Part shown: positions 48,763-55,930 of the stretch, in pieces | Position numbering within the stretch: the first letter of the stretch is position 1 | How the letters are laid out: each line of letters starts with the position of its first letter | NCBI GenBank assembly: GCA_963675295.2 | Contig: CAXXKJ010000002.1 | Span: 2,208,001-2,272,000, forward strand | Source of the DNA: a bacterium | GTDB taxonomy: Bacteria > Electryoneota > Electryoneia > Electryoneales > Electryoneaceae | Direction: 5' to 3' | DNA length: 64,000 nucleotides | Translations under genes and position numbers: made by a program | The notes under the pieces: generated by a model | Databases searched by the model: none | Seen by the model: the letters and a program-made list of their open reading frames with translations, nothing else | Told to the model about the DNA's origin: nothing

Positions 48763-48920
48763 CTCTGCTTCGGAAAAATGTACACGATCTGGATTGCTGG
48801 AATTGGCAATTCCACGGTAGCATACAAGAGCTGTACCAAACTGCCTTCCTGAGCCGCTTTCTGAAGTCGCACGCCTGATCTGTTGCCCGTTTCATTTCAC
48901 ATCAATTGGGGGATGGTGAA

Positions 48921-49331
48921 ATGGCAACCTCATCCGCAAGATCTATCCTTGTTTTACGCTGGATCGCACGCATCCTCGGTACCATCATCGCAGTGTTCAC
49001 CCTCACCCGTTTCGCCGTTGAGATCCTGGAACCCGGCGGCTTGAACATCGAGAACGTCCAGCACTGGGTACTGTTGATCCCGATGTGGATCGCCCAGATC
49101 GGCCTTCTGCTCGGCTGGCGCTGGGAAAGGTTCGGCGGTATGCTGGCTTCCGCGTGCTTGATTTTCCTGGGGATAGCGAGCCTGATCATTCTCAGGAATC
49201 CGGCGGTGCTTATCATGTCCGTCTTCATGCTGATTCCGGCGGTGCTGTACATCTACTGCTGGCAGGCGACGAAGAAGCGGGATCTTATGGCACCTGCGGA
49301 AACTCCGGAGGTCCATCATGAACCCGCGTAA
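48921..49331 (+). CDS. small four-TM hypothetical membrane protein
   Basis: LRWIARILG...GLLLGWRWERFGG hydrophobic pattern. Confidence 0.7.
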   Translation: MATSSARSILVLRWIARILGTIIAVFTLTRFAVEILEPGGLNIENVQHWVLLIPMWIAQIGLLLGWRWERFGGMLASACLIFLGIASLIILRNPAVLIMSVFMLIPAVLYIYCWQATKKRDLMAPAETPEVHHEPA

Positions 49332-49863: not shown

Positions 49864-50063
49864 ACCGGGCTATGGGCAATAGGCTATGGGCTATGGGAGG
49901 GTTGCAACTGCGGCATTATGTTTGAGGTTAGTACTCCACGCTGTTGATATTGCGGTCTGAATAACGGACTTTTTATGGACCGTAATCAGTCTTGATATAG
50001 CCTTTTTTCTGCCCTATTTTATCCCCCGAAGTGTACCATCCCCCCGAACAAGGAGACGGACCG

Positions 50064-50336
50064 ATGATTGACGGCCGCCGCATTAAACCGATCAGCTACC
50101 TCAAGTCGCACGCCGCGGAGGTGCTGAAAGATCTGAAAGAAACAGGCAAGCCCTATGTGATTACGCAGCATGGAGAGGGCAGGGCTATTCTTATGGATAT
50201 TGACAAGTATGAGGAAGAGCTGGAAACCATTGCGAGATTGAAAATGGTGCTCATGGGAAAAGAACAAGTCCGGCAAGGAAAAGCCCGCCCTGCTGAAGAA
50301 GCGTTTGAAGAACTCAAGAAGCTGCGCGCAGGATAA
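50064..50336 (+). CDS. Phd/YefM family antitoxin
   Basis: IKPISYLKSHAAEVL...PYVITQHGE..A.LMD; AAGGAG RBS. Confidence 0.92.
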   Translation: MIDGRRIKPISYLKSHAAEVLKDLKETGKPYVITQHGEGRAILMDIDKYEEELETIARLKMVLMGKEQVRQGKARPAEEAFEELKKLRAG

Positions 50337-50381
50337 TCCTTGTAGGGGTGAGGGGCGGCTGTTGGGGTGACAGCCGGTTTG

Positions 50382-50510
50382 ATGAGCAAACCGGGCCACC
50401 CGTCATACCGGGTTTTCTATGACATTCAGGATGAAGCGGTGTATGTCCGTTTGATCACCGATGGCCGCCGGAACATGCAGGAACTCCTGGCGAAGCGGTT
50501 GTTGGGGTGA
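50382..50510 (+). pseudogene. RelE/ParE toxin C-terminal remnant
   Basis: Frame reads YRVFYDIQDEAVYVRLITDGRRNMQELLAKRLLG*; the N-terminal part is absent and REP sequence lies in its place. Confidence 0.8.
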
Positions 50511-51705: not shown

Positions 51706-51871
51706 TGAAGCCCCGGGCCACCCGCCACGGCATTTGATGTTATACCAATGCGATGTATCGCTTTCTTTGCAGAATTTTTTGTCATATCTTGGCGGTAGCC
51801 GCCTGCAGCGGCTGAACAGGTCCCGGCACCAGGGATTGCCGGGCTACGCTTTATTGCTGAAGGTGGACTTG

Positions 51872-52468
51872 ATGCTGCCAGATTTTCTAGACAGCAAACA
51901 TCGGTTGCTACAAATCCTTCAATACTCTATGCGATTTGAGTTCGCAAAATCTTCTCCTTTTCTTGGAATGTTGAACAAGTCAATAATTCACGAAGGCAGA
52001 GATCCGATACTGGTAAACGAAGAGCTCGGTTCAGAGGAAATTGTTGTTCTTAAAGAATCTTCTGCAATCTATGAAATAGATCTCAGAACAGTTAGTTCTA
52101 GAAGTCTAAAAGATATCTACAATGATTTTAAATCCATGGCGGAAAATATTGCAAGCGATCAATCACAACATGCAATAAAAGAACTAGATCGCACCCTTGC
52201 CAAAGTGGGAAATGTTATGGATATGGCAGGAAAACCTTTCACTCCCGATAGCTTTATAGCAATGATGGAAAAGATATGGATAGATTTTGACTGTGATGGT
52301 ATGCCACGATTACCACAAATAGTAGTCGGTCCTGATGCAGAAAACGCCGTCCTTGCGATGTTTCAGAAGCTTGATGAGGAGCCATATAAAACACGCATGA
52401 ACGAGTTGATGGCAAAGAAACACGAGGAATATCTTGAAAGAGAGAGTCATAGAACATTGGTTGACTAA
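51872..52468 (+). CDS. hypothetical protein (198 aa), possibly truncated HK97-like fold
   Basis: AT-rich ORF, AAGGTGGA RBS before ATG 51872, overlaps the next gene; fold suggestion is inference. Confidence 0.75.
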   Translation: MLPDFLDSKHRLLQILQYSMRFEFAKSSPFLGMLNKSIIHEGRDPILVNEELGSEEIVVLKESSAIYEIDLRTVSSRSLKDIYNDFKSMAENIASDQSQHAIKELDRTLAKVGNVMDMAGKPFTPDSFIAMMEKIWIDFDCDGMPRLPQIVVGPDAENAVLAMFQKLDEEPYKTRMNELMAKKHEEYLERESHRTLVD

Positions 52469-54068
52469 GGCGACCGAACGGACTTTCCAGGTACCTTTCG
52501 CTTACATGCTTGCAAGTCGAGGATTTACTGTGCTTCATGTCACTCGACACTGCGCAATGGAACTAGGTAAAGATGTCATTGCTGTTGATAGTGAAGGGCT
52601 TGTTTGTGCTTTTCAATTAAAGACTGGAGATCTGAATAAATCTAAATGGCGGGATATTTATTCACAAATCCAGGAGTTGTTAGAAAGTACTGTAATACAT
52701 CCCTCTATTCCTTCAACTTCTGATTATCAGTCATATCTTGTTATTAATGGAAAAATAGAAGAGGAGGCGCAAATAGCAATTGATGCTAGTAATCGTAATT
52801 GGGTATCGCGTGGATTCCGTCCTCTCAAAACTATTGTAGGATCGCAACTTGAAAAATGGGCTAGTGATCTCGGCACTTCATTGTGGCCTACAGAGATTAG
52901 GGAAATGAAAGATGTTTTGGAGTTGTTTCTCAATGATGGGTTATCTTTATTTCCTAAAGAAAAATATGCTCGCATTATTCAAACGATGCTTCCCTACAAC
53001 TATACAAAGAACAATAAGAAACCAAGTATGGCTGCTCGAAATAGAGCAACATCAAGTGCATCACTTTTAACTTCTATTGTTCTATCAAATTTCAGTAAAA
53101 ATGAAAATTTTGTCGCTGAATTTGAGGCTTGGACTATTTACTTATCGTACGTATTTTCAATAGTAGATCGCTGGTCAACCTCACAACAAAGCTATTCCAA
53201 TGAGATTAATATTGCAAAAACAGCTATCGAACACGCACTTATTAATTTAGTAGATGAAATTAGGGAAAGAAAACACTTTGTTGAGGGTGATGCATCTGTC
53301 GACGCACCTTATTATAGGATACGAATAACTTGGGTAATCGGCATACTAAGTGCATTTGGCATAAAGCGCAGGATTGAATCGCAGAAAGACGATGAGCTTG
53401 ACAATACTATCAAAACATTTGTATTAGACCATATTACTGAAATGGTAATATGGGGAGAATCAGCGATACCTAGCTATCTATCAGTATTTTGGTATCTAAA
53501 GAAGATAGGGAAATACACAAGTGCGAATCACTTTTTGTATGGTGTGATTAATAGTATAGTCGTAGGTCACAGTAACGAGGAAAAGTATATCGCAAACCCA
53601 TATTATCAAGCAATCGACTTGATACCTTATATGCTTGATGATCAGTTAGCAGAGGTATGTCCCTTACCATATAGAGTCTCCACTAAGCCTTTTGAAGATA
53701 ATTCCAAAGGTATATCTTATACGTTAGAATCACTCCTTGATATTATTGTAAGAGAAAATTGGAGGCTACATTTTAAGGTAATATGGCCGTCAGCATCACG
53801 AATAATGTCACGCAAATTCAGATATAAAAAGACCTGGCACTATTATTGGTGGAGGTGTGGTGAAGAAGGCCAGGAGGTAGTTACGTTGAGACATCCGACA
53901 CAGAGCTGGCAGAAGCTTAGGAAAGATACTTCTGATGTTTCTGGAAACATTTTACCAAAATCCATGAAAGAATCTCCTTATTACGTGCTTTATCACTTGC
54001 TCGTATTCCCACACCGAATCTCACCAAGTGTAATTCGGTGGCTTGACCACCAAATAAGAGGGGTGTAA
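52434..54068 (+). CDS. PD-(D/E)xK (Mrr/REase-like) nuclease domain protein with long helical C-terminus
   Basis: ERTFQ...ELGKDVIA...AFQLKTGD catalytic pattern; GAGGA RBS before TTG; AT-rich. Confidence 0.8.
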   Translation: MKERVIEHWLTKATERTFQVPFAYMLASRGFTVLHVTRHCAMELGKDVIAVDSEGLVCAFQLKTGDLNKSKWRDIYSQIQELLESTVIHPSIPSTSDYQSYLVINGKIEEEAQIAIDASNRNWVSRGFRPLKTIVGSQLEKWASDLGTSLWPTEIREMKDVLELFLNDGLSLFPKEKYARIIQTMLPYNYTKNNKKPSMAARNRATSSASLLTSIVLSNFSKNENFVAEFEAWTIYLSYVFSIVDRWSTSQQSYSNEINIAKTAIEHALINLVDEIRERKHFVEGDASVDAPYYRIRITWVIGILSAFGIKRRIESQKDDELDNTIKTFVLDHITEMVIWGESAIPSYLSVFWYLKKIGKYTSANHFLYGVINSIVVGHSNEEKYIANPYYQAIDLIPYMLDDQLAEVCPLPYRVSTKPFEDNSKGISYTLESLLDIIVRENWRLHFKVIWPSASRIMSRKFRYKKTWHYYWWRCGEEGQEVVTLRHPTQSWQKLRKDTSDVSGNILPKSMKESPYYVLYHLLVFPHRISPSVIRWLDHQIRGV

Positions 54069-54090: not shown

Positions 54091-55680
54091 CTAATTACAT
54101 GGAGTTACCTGCCTCACACTATCAATCACCGTCCCATCGACCCACTTGATGATGGCGATATCGTTGTCGAGCAGTTCGGGTTTGGCGGGCGGGCCACCGG
54201 CGAGGCGTTCGACCTCGTGTTTCAGTTCGTGAATGGTTTTCAGGGGCAGGGTGTCGCCGGCGGGCGCGTGTTTGTTCCACGCGTTGACGCGGTCGATCAG
54301 GTCCTGGCGTAGCGGGTTGATCGCGATGCCGCGTTCGGTGACGATCACGTCGATCAGTTCGCCGGGGCCGGTGAGGGTGGTGACGTTGTCGACGATGATC
54401 GGCATACGGTCGCGCATGGACGGGATCGGCAGGATGGTGCATTTGCTGAAGAGGCAGTTCTGCCAACCGCCGATGCCGTGCAGGAGCTGGCCGTCCGAGT
54501 GGGTGACGACGTTGGCGTTGAAATTGACGTCGACCTCGGTCGCGCCGAGCACGACGGCGTCCAGCATGGACGCGAAGTTGCCCTTGCCGTGGTAGTTGTA
54601 GCTGGTGAACGGGCTGGTGTTGATATGGCCCGGATTTTCGCGCATCGAGCGCACGCCTTCCAGGTCAAACGTCTGGCCGTCGAGGATGTAATCGGTCAGG
54701 CCTTCCTCAAGCATATCCACGAGATACTGGGTTGATCCGCCGCGGATGAAGCGGGCCTTGATGCCCATTTCACGCATCATGTCGCGCACGAAGATCGCGA
54801 ACGCGAGCGCGGTACCGCCGGCGCCGGCCTGGAACGACCAGCCGTCATGGAGGATGCCGGTCGCCTTGACGAATTTCGCGGTCAGTTCGGAGATCAGCAG
54901 ACGGTCGGGCGACTTGGTGATGTTGGTGGTGCCGGAGACGATTTTCGACGGGTCGCCGACCTTGTCGAGCACGACGACGGCATCCACGTTCTGCCCCTGG
55001 ATCTGCCATGGGTAGCAGGGGAAGGGGACGAGGTTGTCGGTGACGACGATGACGTGCTTCGCGTACATCGAGTCAGCGAGCGCGAAGCCGAGCAGACCGC
55101 AGGCGGACGGGCCACGGTCGCCAGTGCAATTGCCGAAAGCGTCAGCGGTGGGTGCGGCGATGATCGCGACGTCGATGGAGACGTCACCGTCCTGGATCGC
55201 CTGCCAGCGGCCGCCGTGGCTGCGGAGTACGCCGAAGCCGCGCATCTTGCCCTGGGAGGCGTACGCACCGAGCGGGCCGTTCATCGAGCCTTCGATGTGG
55301 TGGATGGTGCCGTCCTCGAGGCGGTCGATCAGGGGCGCGTGGCACGGGAACGACGCCGACGGGAACCACATCAGGTCCTTGACACCCATCTCTTTCGCGG
55401 CGTCGAAGACCTGGTTCATGACGAGGTCGCCGTTACGGAAATGGTGATGGTTGGAGATGGTCATGCCGTCCCGGAGACCAGCCTTTTCCAGCGCTTCACG
55501 GATGCTGCCGACGACTTTGTTGCCGTCCGCCGGGAAGTCCGCGCAGGTGCGGATCGGGGTGGTCGCCTTGTCGCCTTGGGGGCGAAATTTTCCGACACCC
55601 TGGTACGGGACCTGGTCGCGTCCGTTGACGAAAGTCGGGACAGATCGTCCCGCGGCATTGACTGCGCGTTCGCTGGCCAT
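54091..55680 (-). CDS. citF: citrate lyase alpha subunit (ACP/CoA transferase)
   Basis: GL.DGMTIS.HHHFRNGD, RSHGGR, FQAGAGG, GIGGWQ, VIVTERGIA.NP; start at MASER (the ORF-track extension is repeat-derived). Confidence 0.9.
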   Translation of the reverse strand: MASERAVNAAGRSVPTFVNGRDQVPYQGVGKFRPQGDKATTPIRTCADFPADGNKVVGSIREALEKAGLRDGMTISNHHHFRNGDLVMNQVFDAAKEMGVKDLMWFPSASFPCHAPLIDRLEDGTIHHIEGSMNGPLGAYASQGKMRGFGVLRSHGGRWQAIQDGDVSIDVAIIAAPTADAFGNCTGDRGPSACGLLGFALADSMYAKHVIVVTDNLVPFPCYPWQIQGQNVDAVVVLDKVGDPSKIVSGTTNITKSPDRLLISELTAKFVKATGILHDGWSFQAGAGGTALAFAIFVRDMMREMGIKARFIRGGSTQYLVDMLEEGLTDYILDGQTFDLEGVRSMRENPGHINTSPFTSYNYHGKGNFASMLDAVVLGATEVDVNFNANVVTHSDGQLLHGIGGWQNCLFSKCTILPIPSMRDRMPIIVDNVTTLTGPGELIDVIVTERGIAINPLRQDLIDRVNAWNKHAPAGDTLPLKTIHELKHEVERLAGGPPAKPELLDNDIAIIKWVDGTVIDSVRQVTPCN

Positions 55681-55709
55681 GATGATGTTCTCGGTTAAGC
55701 GTTGTTCAG

Positions 55710-55806
55710 CCGCGTTTGCAAGCAAACACGGGTACGTGCCTGGGCTACCCGTCTGACTGTTTAACTGTTGCGCGTCCGCGTTTGCAAGCAAACACGGGCA
55801 CTTGCA
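55710..55806. repeat. family C repeat x2 (CCGCGTTTGCAAGCAAACACGGG)
   Basis: Direct repeats at 55710 and 55776; inverted copy at 19373. Confidence 0.85.
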
Positions 55807-55930
55807 GTGGAAACACGGACACATTCTTGTTTAACACGGGCATTTCGGGTCGTGATGTGCACGTGAATCTGGGAAGATACGAGTCCGATTGCAGGAGTGG
55901 CGGTGAGGTTTCTCAGAGCCATGCGGACTA

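Follow-up and report, generated by a model that had tools for sequence, protein, structure and literature searches.

A conserved two-gene cassette pairing a small protein with a predicted Mrr-type nuclease: a candidate anti-phage defence module in an Electryoneaceae genome

The DNA analysed here, referred to as the window, is a stretch of 64,000 nucleotides (nt) from a bacterium of the family Electryoneaceae (contig CAXXKJ010000002.1, positions 2,208,001 to 2,272,000), and the element in question is a cassette of two co-oriented genes, gene 1 and gene 2, encoding protein 1 and protein 2. All positions are those of the window unless another contig is named. The following features were assigned to the cassette, with lengths of proteins in amino acids (aa) and with structures predicted by AlphaFold 2 (AF2).

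51872..52468, plus strand: gene 1, with an ATG start within the open reading frame (ORF) 51734..52468; translation of 198 aa
52434..54068, plus strand: gene 2, with a TTG start; translation of 544 aa
52434..52468, plus strand: dual-coding overlap of gene 1 and gene 2, 35 nt, from the ORF coordinates
51860..51867, plus strand: Shine-Dalgarno-like AAGGTGGA of gene 1, 4 nt upstream of the ATG, read from the sequence
52424..52429, plus strand: Shine-Dalgarno-like GAGGAA of gene 2, internal to gene 1 and preceding the TTG, read from the sequence
52434..52877, plus strand: predicted Mrr-like PD-(D/E)xK domain of protein 2, residues 1 to about 148, from invariant columns, Foldseek and the Mrr_cat match of a homologue
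52878..54065, plus strand: helical C-terminal domain of protein 2, residues about 149-544, from the AF2 secondary structure

The GC content is 0.35-0.42 over positions 51750-53999 against 0.58-0.65 in both flanks, and the cassette stands out as an AT-rich island. Coordinates and composition agree with the first-pass annotation, in which two AT-rich, co-oriented genes were described with an overlap of 35 nt and a ribosome-binding site of gene 2 inside gene 1. The reading frame of gene 2 is +1 relative to that of gene 1, and the overlap codes twice, for a conserved tail (RExxR-K/T-LV-G/D) at the C-terminus of protein 1 and, in the other frame, for the N-terminus of protein 2 (M-L/K-ERVIExWL). 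A fusion of both genes by programmed frameshift was considered and rejected; because no slippery site was seen and a canonical start codon of gene 2 stands at the aligned position in 54 of 56 loci, separate initiation is preferred.

Homologues of gene 2 were collected by a word-based search, giving a total of 47 proteins including the query (422-568 aa), none of which carries a Pfam domain or a name beyond "hypothetical". A locus scan with one genome per species yielded 65 gene 2 loci, from Poribacteria, Lentisphaerota/Victivallales, Bacteroidota, Chloroflexota, Planctomycetota, Verrucomicrobiota, Acidobacteriota, Pseudomonadota, Myxococcota, Desulfobacterota, candidate-phyla-radiation bacteria and one Methanosarcina bin; the pair is present also in Actinomycetota, on a Rhodococcus plasmid. 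Cultured strains among its carriers are Flavisolibacter longurius BT320, Massilia sp. 2TAF26, Roseomonas nepalensis S9.3B, Neorhizobium alkalisoli, Algoriphagus taiwanensis JCM 19755 and, with the plasmid, Rhodococcus qingshengii. By single-sequence search, gene 1 was detected upstream in 59 of the 60 loci having an upstream frame, and a profile of 147 sequences placed it immediately 5' of gene 2 in 63 of the 65, which is far beyond chance and answers in the affirmative the question, raised at first pass, of whether the homologues co-occur. One of the two exceptions is a locus that begins at a contig edge. The other (L066; 5609-6198 and 8001-8975) is a decayed copy, disrupted by an insertion sequence (IS) and frameshifted, in which gene 1 is broken into two pieces, gene 2 is interrupted and matches from residue 196 only, and the gene 1 pieces are separated by an unrelated ORF from what remains of gene 2.

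The identical overlap of 35 nt was found in 56 of 64 loci, and the start codon of gene 2 at the aligned position is mostly not ATG (29 GTG, 16 ATG and nine TTG). A divergent clade of six loci (L054, L056, L057, L058, L060 and L061), made up of candidate-phyla-radiation, Bacteroidota and Thermodesulfobacteriota bins, lacks the overlap, the two genes being 32-148 nt apart; the overlap is a feature of the main clade and not of the whole family. The pair on the Rhodococcus plasmid, which is mobilizable, is divergent but has the same 35-nt overlap, and it aligns with the two families at hhalign probabilities of 98.1% (protein 1) and 99.4% (protein 2); NCBI names its gene 2 product "restriction endonuclease".

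The gene 1 family is large. A profile search of 1.84 billion cluster representatives (50% identity) gave 2524 relatives with an expectation value (E) of 0.001 or less and 978 with E of 1e-30 or less, the lengths being 192-257 aa among the 150 matches listed. In addition, a search led by gene 1, and hence independent of gene 2, was made in 1560 other genomes of four phyla, and a total of 13 new loci were identified (Pseudomonadota, 1 of 400 genomes; Bacteroidota, 7 of 400; Planctomycetota, 4 of 380; Chloroflexota, 1 of 380). The N-terminus of the downstream gene product matches the Mrr-type domain in 12 of these 13 loci, and the match is mainly limited to the first 148 positions or so in five of the 12. 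These observations altogether indicate that genes 1 and 2 form a real, coupled and strongly conserved operon. At one of the 12, a Planctomycetota locus (L087; G931:C1:321579-322115), gene 1 contains two in-frame stops, one TGA and one TAA, with the gene 2 frame open, and this gene 1 may be a recent pseudogene. Weak matches of the gene 1 profile (E about 1e-4) within frames of 742-745 aa in three Bacteroidota genomes (L082, L083 and L084) were rejected as spurious; L082, the single one of these frames that was scanned, is RelA/SpoT, and the matches are taken as chance similarity of helical segments.

The AF2 model of protein 2 has a predicted local distance difference test score (pLDDT) of 90.2 and a predicted template modelling score (pTM) of 0.89, with an alpha/beta fold up to about residue 148 and helices thereafter. 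The E...GxD...QxK motif, pointed out earlier as Mrr- or restriction-endonuclease-like at the start of gene 2, is present, and E15, E43, G45, D47, Q61, L62 and K63 are invariant in an alignment of 33 sequences. The arrangement D...QxK is a signature of Mrr-type PD-(D/E)xK nucleases. Upon Foldseek search, the domain matched NucS/EndoMS (probability 1.00, E 0.07-0.13), Card1 (probability 1.00, E 0.44) and EcoO109I (probability 0.82), E being 0.07-1.2 for these three, and locally also SfsA and Mus81; E ranged from 0.07 to 2 over all nuclease matches, with none at 0.001 or below. Protein 2 of the window stays below every Pfam, NCBIfam and PADLOC threshold. Mrr_cat was matched by one of 33 family members (E 0.032), and the Rhodococcus homologue passes the Pfam model of Mrr_cat with 22.8 bits against a cut-off of 21. 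From these motifs and matches, the N-terminus of protein 2 is predicted to be an Mrr-type PD-(D/E)xK nuclease domain.

The remaining part of protein 2, described at first pass as about 400 aa of unrecognised helical sequence, retained that description, for it is helical in the AF2 model and no convincing relative was found by Foldseek, PDB sequence or Atlas search. The Atlas search with this domain returned one unnamed cluster (score 0.84). Residues W233, R297, G341, E342, W451, L495, P526 and R528 of the helical body are invariant in the 33 sequences. No nucleoside triphosphatase (NTPase) was detected in protein 2 of the window at E of 1 or less, nor at E of 0.5 or less among the families listed for the 33 members, save NPHP3_N, a single weak match in one member (E 0.062). 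PDB sequence searches with both family profiles gave chance-level rows only (designed proteins, E 0.19-0.5; glutathione transferase, E 0.14).

The 13th locus found by the gene 1-led search (L081/L085) differs from the other 12 in its effector. The downstream protein of 630 aa carries a Peptidase_C14 caspase domain at residues 5-221, and its residues 269-624 are colinear, over 339 aligned columns, with the helical domain of protein 2 (hhalign probability 31%, E 5.2e-4). The gene upstream of this caspase protein is a gene 1 homologue (hhalign 99.4%), and gene 1 is upstream also of both metagenome relatives of the caspase protein (64-68% identity). The alignments indicate an effector swap on a constant chassis, composed of protein 1 and the helical body. 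Because a caspase is placed on a similar helical body and gene 1 is kept, protein 1 and the helical body would together be the sensing or regulating unit, to which exchangeable N-terminal domains are attached.

The neighbours of the pair in related loci were scanned for known domains, ten upstream and ten downstream. Among ten co-oriented genes that end just before gene 1, six belong to defence systems, i.e., BrxL of the bacteriophage exclusion (BREX) system, type ISP enzymes (two), HsdR of type I restriction (two) and an Eco57I/MmeI-type methylase, and the other four are a ResIII helicase, a conjugative coupling protein, an fn3/FlgD_ig protein and one gene without match at threshold. The ten genes just after gene 2 include DUF1156, SNF2 plus NOV_C and two Schlafen AlbA_2 genes, together with FGAM synthase, a hydrolase and four genes without match. 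The examination of homologue neighbourhoods that had been proposed at the outset thus gave defence genes at six of ten upstream positions, besides the ResIII helicase, and at four of ten downstream positions; by simple count, this is typical defence-island company, with DISARM-like genes also among the neighbours. A cluster of proteins of about 1018 aa lies upstream in ten loci, mostly of Poribacteria, and the two members scanned (L007 and L023) are type ISP. On an IMG/VR contig of 13.6 kb that carries the pair (L131), the GC content is 0.28-0.37 over 10 kb of co-oriented genes around the pair and 0.45-0.50 at one end.

In the window, the following features were identified in the flanks of the cassette.

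50031..50507, plus strand: decayed Phd/ParE module, with an intact Phd antitoxin and the last 35 ParE codons
50601..51593, minus strand: IS30-like transposase ORF (Pfam HTH_38 and rve), adjoining the cassette
51713..51855, plus strand: conserved upstream segment, 85% identical to G001:C7:59742-59880 of a sister species
54091..55824, minus strand: CitF (Pfam), to the right of the cassette

The Phd/YefM antitoxin at 50031-50336 matches Pfam PhdYeFM_antitox with 58 bits, and the ParE remnant at 50403-50507, found by tblastn with the ParE of the sister species, corresponds to residues 73-107 of 107 only. The IS30 element and the decayed toxin-antitoxin (TA) pair, both named in the first-pass annotation as adjoining the cassette, are thereby confirmed. 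A Pirin gene (Pfam) is located farther left, and on the right the stop codons of gene 2 and CitF are 22 nt apart. The absence of a methyltransferase, likewise stated early, holds for the six flanking window ORFs that were scanned with Pfam (47.8-57.8 kb, leaving out an ORF of 141 aa at 48906-49331). The same was the case for the absence of other phage genes, since no capsid-assembly gene, and no portal, terminase or protease gene, was found among these six ORFs and the 20 related-locus neighbours.

The flanks are syntenic in the sister species (genome G001; L099, G001:C7:56000-62500), in which Pirin, two intact Phd/ParE pairs, a conserved segment of 140 nt and CitF follow one another. Upon pairwise alignment, the homology between the window and G001 ends about 15 nt 5' of the gene 1 ATG, near 51855, and is picked up again 14 nt within the 3' end of CitF; the end of homology near 51855 is thus taken to mark the left edge of an acquired cassette. 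Between the conserved segment and CitF, G001 carries another gene, of 620 aa with DUF7380 and DUF4209. A further genome, G002 (L100, G002:C3:46000-56000), has a Phd/ParE pair and then about 0.8 kb of AT-rich sequence (GC 0.375-0.395), which adjoins CitF and contains no ORF of 90 aa or more. Because G001 holds a different cargo gene at the same syntenic position and G002 an AT-rich spacer, the site between the Phd/ParE modules and CitF is taken as a small hotspot for the exchange of cargo genes. The gene 2 family was not found in the genomes of 60 relatives, three of them related at the level of genus, 12 at that of family and 45 at that of phylum. Given this absence, the AT-rich composition and the other cargo at the site in G001, the cassette is read as a foreign, horizontally acquired insertion. 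The ends of the IS30-like transposase match other contigs of G001 but not the cassette site.

The conserved upstream segment was considered also as an attC site of an integron cassette. This idea was rejected, as the genome of the window contains the segment only once, 12 of 200 shuffled versions fold at least as well (z -1.95), and a mere 22 nt lie between the stops of gene 2 and CitF. Two stretches of 25-31 nt, at about 55702-55732 and 55775-55804, lie within the 5' end of the long open frame of CitF, before the CitF domain. They have dozens of matches, 93-100% identical and spread over many contigs of the three sister genomes, and look like a dispersed short repeat of the genus.

The AF2 model of protein 1 (pLDDT 88.0, pTM 0.71) consists of a helix at residues 6-27, a hairpin at 46-57, a helix of 34 residues at 79-112, a helix at 125-134, two short strands at 138-146, and helices at 154-166 and 172-192. 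Four residues, E41, G42, R194 and L196, are invariant in 147 members, and the N-terminal MLPD, K183, R190 and E191 are nearly so. Gene 1 had been read from the sequence as a shortened capsid core of the HK97 type, or an encapsulin pattern. The segments proposed for that core coincide with the hairpin, the 34-residue helix and the following helix and strands of the model; their identity as HK97 elements is suggestive only, and the encapsulin part of the reading found no support.

Four kinds of weak signal point to an HK97-type capsid, three of them to the T7-like family Phage_capsid_4 (PF25209), which T7 gp10 carries. In Foldseek searches, the top match in the PDB was the T7 capsid 3j7v (E 0.56, probability 0.20, template modelling (TM) score 0.27-0.33), and the top match in BFVD was a fragment of T7M gp10B (E 7e-3, probability 1.00, TM score 0.40), with two more capsid-like rows at probabilities of 0.41-0.44. 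PF25209 was matched below threshold by two of the 147 members, its E of 2.9e-4 being the best of the families listed, and SU10_MCP below threshold by three of the 147. The PHROG family "major head protein" (phrog_544) was matched by two of 42 members, again below threshold. The named families among 30 language-model neighbours are all capsid families (PF25209, Mu-like gpT and Phage_capsid), with lead-level scores of 0.81-0.82. For window protein 1 itself, no capsid match was obtained with Pfam or PHROG. Capsid domains of the PF25209 type were also observed in 37 of 301 Pseudomonadota genomes (L101-L130), mostly in open frames of about 600-790 aa, of which the capsid domain seems to be the C-terminal part.

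With a probability of roughly 55%, the cassette is a horizontally acquired, self-contained two-gene module of anti-phage defence, of a family that is undescribed as far as found. This reading is built on what was directly computed: the two genes as a pair and the conservation of that pair, the motif of the nuclease, the exchange of the effector and the company of defence islands. Comparison with PADLOC-DB v2.0.0, also proposed at first pass, gave no meaningful match to any system model, protein 1 having no match and protein 2 matching only Csx1 (E 0.0048, 14.8 bits) over the helical stretch. No description of the pair was found in the main texts of the literature, where an unnamed listing in supplementary candidate lists is possible, and the early statement that the pair was not recognised as a named system agrees with both results.

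The binding and silencing, the DNA cleavage, the defence role and the trigger that we infer may be arranged as follows. Both proteins would be made together from the operon, the translation of gene 2 being tied to that of gene 1 through the overlap and the weak, mostly non-ATG starts. Protein 2 would be a sensor-effector, in which the Mrr-type domain cuts DNA as the killing part and the helical body of about 400 residues regulates it. Protein 1 would be the obligate partner, probably bound to the helical body and keeping the N-terminal effector silent. Upon infection, protein 1 or the helical body would be perturbed and the effector freed, so as to cut DNA, or to cleave proteins in the caspase clade, and phage production would be stopped, probably with the loss of the cell. 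A cost to the cell is presumed because the effectors are exchangeable and non-specific; by analogy, a constant regulator with a swappable effector is the layout of triggered systems of the abortive-infection type.

Phage head assembly is favoured as the trigger because protein 1 has faint HK97-capsid-like features, which might be engaged, displaced or cleaved by a capsid protein, scaffold, portal or prohead protease. A precedent is Avs8A, an Mrr nuclease fused to a sensor, which HK97-fold capsid proteins activate (PMC12236752). As a speculation, the tail at the C-terminus of protein 1, which is basic and conserved, could plug the active site of the effector. The fullest form of this proposal, a tentative and rather unlikely possibility, takes protein 1 for an HK97 capsid protein that was shortened and domesticated and that serves as the infection-sensing or auto-inhibitory subunit of a widespread modular immune system, whose effector is freed by the head-assembly machinery of the phage. 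Protein 1 would then act as a capsid decoy, and the phage capsid protein, scaffold, portal or prohead protease would recognise, recruit or cleave the mimic, freeing the Mrr nuclease in most lineages and the caspase-type protease in others.

A number of results weigh against the defence reading or against its capsid part. The copy in the window is located among housekeeping genes (Pirin, CitF), with no large island around it. Neither protein had a match in 50,697 phage records, and the pair was found on one of 72,556 plasmids and, intact, at one locus (L131) among 2.9 million contigs of IMG/VR. Neither protein is above threshold in PADLOC, Pfam, NCBIfam or PHROG, and the defence role therefore rests on genomic context. 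The effector swap is known from one clade (three loci), and the helical body was matched to the caspase variant at the above probability of 31% only. A scan for sigma-70-like promoters detected none on the plus strand 5' of gene 1 (three sites in the scan against 6.8 expected), where the promoter type of the host may differ.

As to the capsid part, Foldseek gave nothing for protein 1 at E of 0.001 or less. The hhalign probability of the protein 1 family was 0.13% with T7 gp10, 0.23% with 18 T7-like capsids and 0.36% with 30 diverse PF25209 segments from Pseudomonadota genomes, the best path against the PF25209 capsids being colinear over 101 columns, from the spine helix to the A-domain. By hmmsearch with the T7-like profile, the best E among 189 protein 1 members was 0.21. 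The non-capsid family Stonustoxin_helical matches ten of the 147 members, more than the capsid families do, and 198 residues with four short strands are too few for a full P-domain sheet and A domain of the HK97 fold. The capsid link of protein 1 is not significant, and the HK97 reading stays suggestive only.

The complex prediction for protein 1 and protein 2 supports their binding weakly, with a score of 0.39 (runs of 0.39, 0.09 and 0.45; best of three controls, 0.00). In this range of scores, a pass is wrong more often than it is right unless the prior is strong. The mark set for such scores is reached by 58 of 80 solved complexes and by two of 110 mismatched pairs, and is reached at 0.60 or below by seven of the 80 solved complexes and by both passing mismatches. 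Contact agreement between the runs was at least 0%, and the pLDDT of the partner at least 77. Binding of protein 1 to protein 2 is held likely, because the obligate pairing gives a strong prior.

An addiction module of the TA type, in which protein 1 is a labile antitoxin and the nuclease a toxin, would kill the cell upon its loss, phage defence being incidental; this explanation is unlikely. A small gene followed by that of a larger effector, overlapping with it or tightly coupled to it, is the usual layout of type II systems, and the position of the cassette beside Phd/ParE modules in a variable hotspot, its patchy and horizontal distribution, the copy on a mobilizable plasmid and the weak predicted binding of the two proteins (0.39 against 0.00 for the best control) would all be in keeping with it. 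Protein 1, however, has no recognisable DNA-binding domain, both proteins are far larger than those of classical type II pairs, the pair is found repeatedly directly after restriction or BREX operons, and a conserved helical domain of about 400 residues is hard to explain in a plain toxin. The TA explanation overlaps with the defence reading rather than excluding it, as many defence systems are formally toxin-antitoxin-like.

The Mrr-type N-terminal domain of protein 2, the NCBI label "restriction endonuclease" on the Rhodococcus homologue, the lack of a methyltransferase among the six flanking window ORFs scanned and the restriction systems that often adjoin the pair would suit a stand-alone restriction enzyme, of type IV or other, which cuts DNA that is foreign or modified, has in protein 1 a subunit for specificity or assembly and needs no infection trigger. 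This is improbable, as the exchange of the nuclease for a caspase, with protein 1 and a similar body kept, is unlike an enzyme that discriminates DNA, and no DNA-reading domain (winged helix, SRA etc.) was recognised in either protein. Interference with assembly, by which protein 1 as a truncated capsid homologue would poison or misdirect head assembly and the nuclease would remove unpackaged DNA, agrees with the weak capsid-like signals and has a precedent in Ccm of SaPIbov5, a satellite capsid homologue according to an excerpt of PMC8569155, but is very improbable, for the capsid similarity is not significant, strict pairing with a changeable effector points to regulation rather than to a structural poison, and no other satellite or phage gene was found among the 20 related-locus neighbours and six window ORFs scanned.

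The gene 1 family is large and the pair is present in many phyla, but a family name is lacking for both proteins. Should the pair protect against phage, as the defence reading proposes, it would represent a new modular system with exchangeable effectors, from mostly uncultured lineages that screens of model organisms have missed. If, in addition, the capsid likeness is real, the host would be using a fragment of a viral shell protein within an immune sensor, a structural decoy serving as tripwire, and the way by which bacteria detect head assembly without a STAND NTPase would become testable. The conserved dual-coding overlap of 35 nt, with its mostly GTG and TTG starts, provides a clean case for translational coupling.

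Compared with known systems, protein 2 shares with Mrr_cat (PF04471) the D...QxK motif and a similar strand-helix pattern that follows it. In classical Mrr, a DNA-binding domain at the N-terminus precedes the catalytic domain at the C-terminus; protein 2 instead begins with the catalytic domain, to which a helical domain of about 400 aa is joined. Type II TA systems resemble the pair in the small upstream gene that overlaps a larger downstream enzyme, in patchy occurrence and in the company of Phd/ParE, but the proteins here are much larger, no DNA-binding domain was detected in the upstream protein, and the downstream one carries, besides an exchangeable effector domain, a large non-catalytic domain that is conserved. 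With HK97-type capsids such as T7 gp10, protein 1 shares the predicted order of an N-terminal helix, a hairpin, a 34-residue helix and a helix-strand-helix unit with an "ivv-P" motif. With 198 aa, against about 345 aa in T7 gp10, protein 1 has no room for the greater part of the P-domain sheet or for a portion of the A domain; it has no significant profile match, and no portal, terminase or protease genes are among the scanned neighbours.

Ccm of SaPIbov5 is a satellite-encoded capsid homologue that redirects the assembly of the helper capsid, as stated in the excerpt of PMC8569155, and is similar in that a capsid homologue encoded outside the phage acts against the phage. It differs, within the same account, in being a recognisable capsid homologue that co-assembles into capsids, is encoded by a phage satellite and has no nuclease partner. 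A further parallel is Avs8 (PD-lambda-4), for which PMC12236752 describes a two-gene operon with a large protein, Avs8A, composed of an N-terminal Mrr-family PD-(D/E)xK nuclease fused to a sensor part and switched on by HK97-fold capsid proteins. The nuclease of Avs8 is an inducible effector, and its small partner is given as of unknown function there. Avs8A, according to that paper, has a STAND P-loop NTPase, whereas protein 2 has no NTPase match and an all-helical body after residue 150, and the pair is therefore not an Avs system. Avs8B is likewise presented there as dispensable, unlike the small partner here, which is conserved in 63 of 65 loci, and the capsid-like element here would be encoded by the host and not by the phage. 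By the comparisons made here, the pair belongs neither to the classical Mrr enzymes nor to any PADLOC family, and does not qualify as a bona fide capsid protein; by analogy, it would work like sensor-effector defence systems with swappable effectors and like abortive systems of the TA type, and is probably best read as an undescribed, modular anti-phage defence pair.

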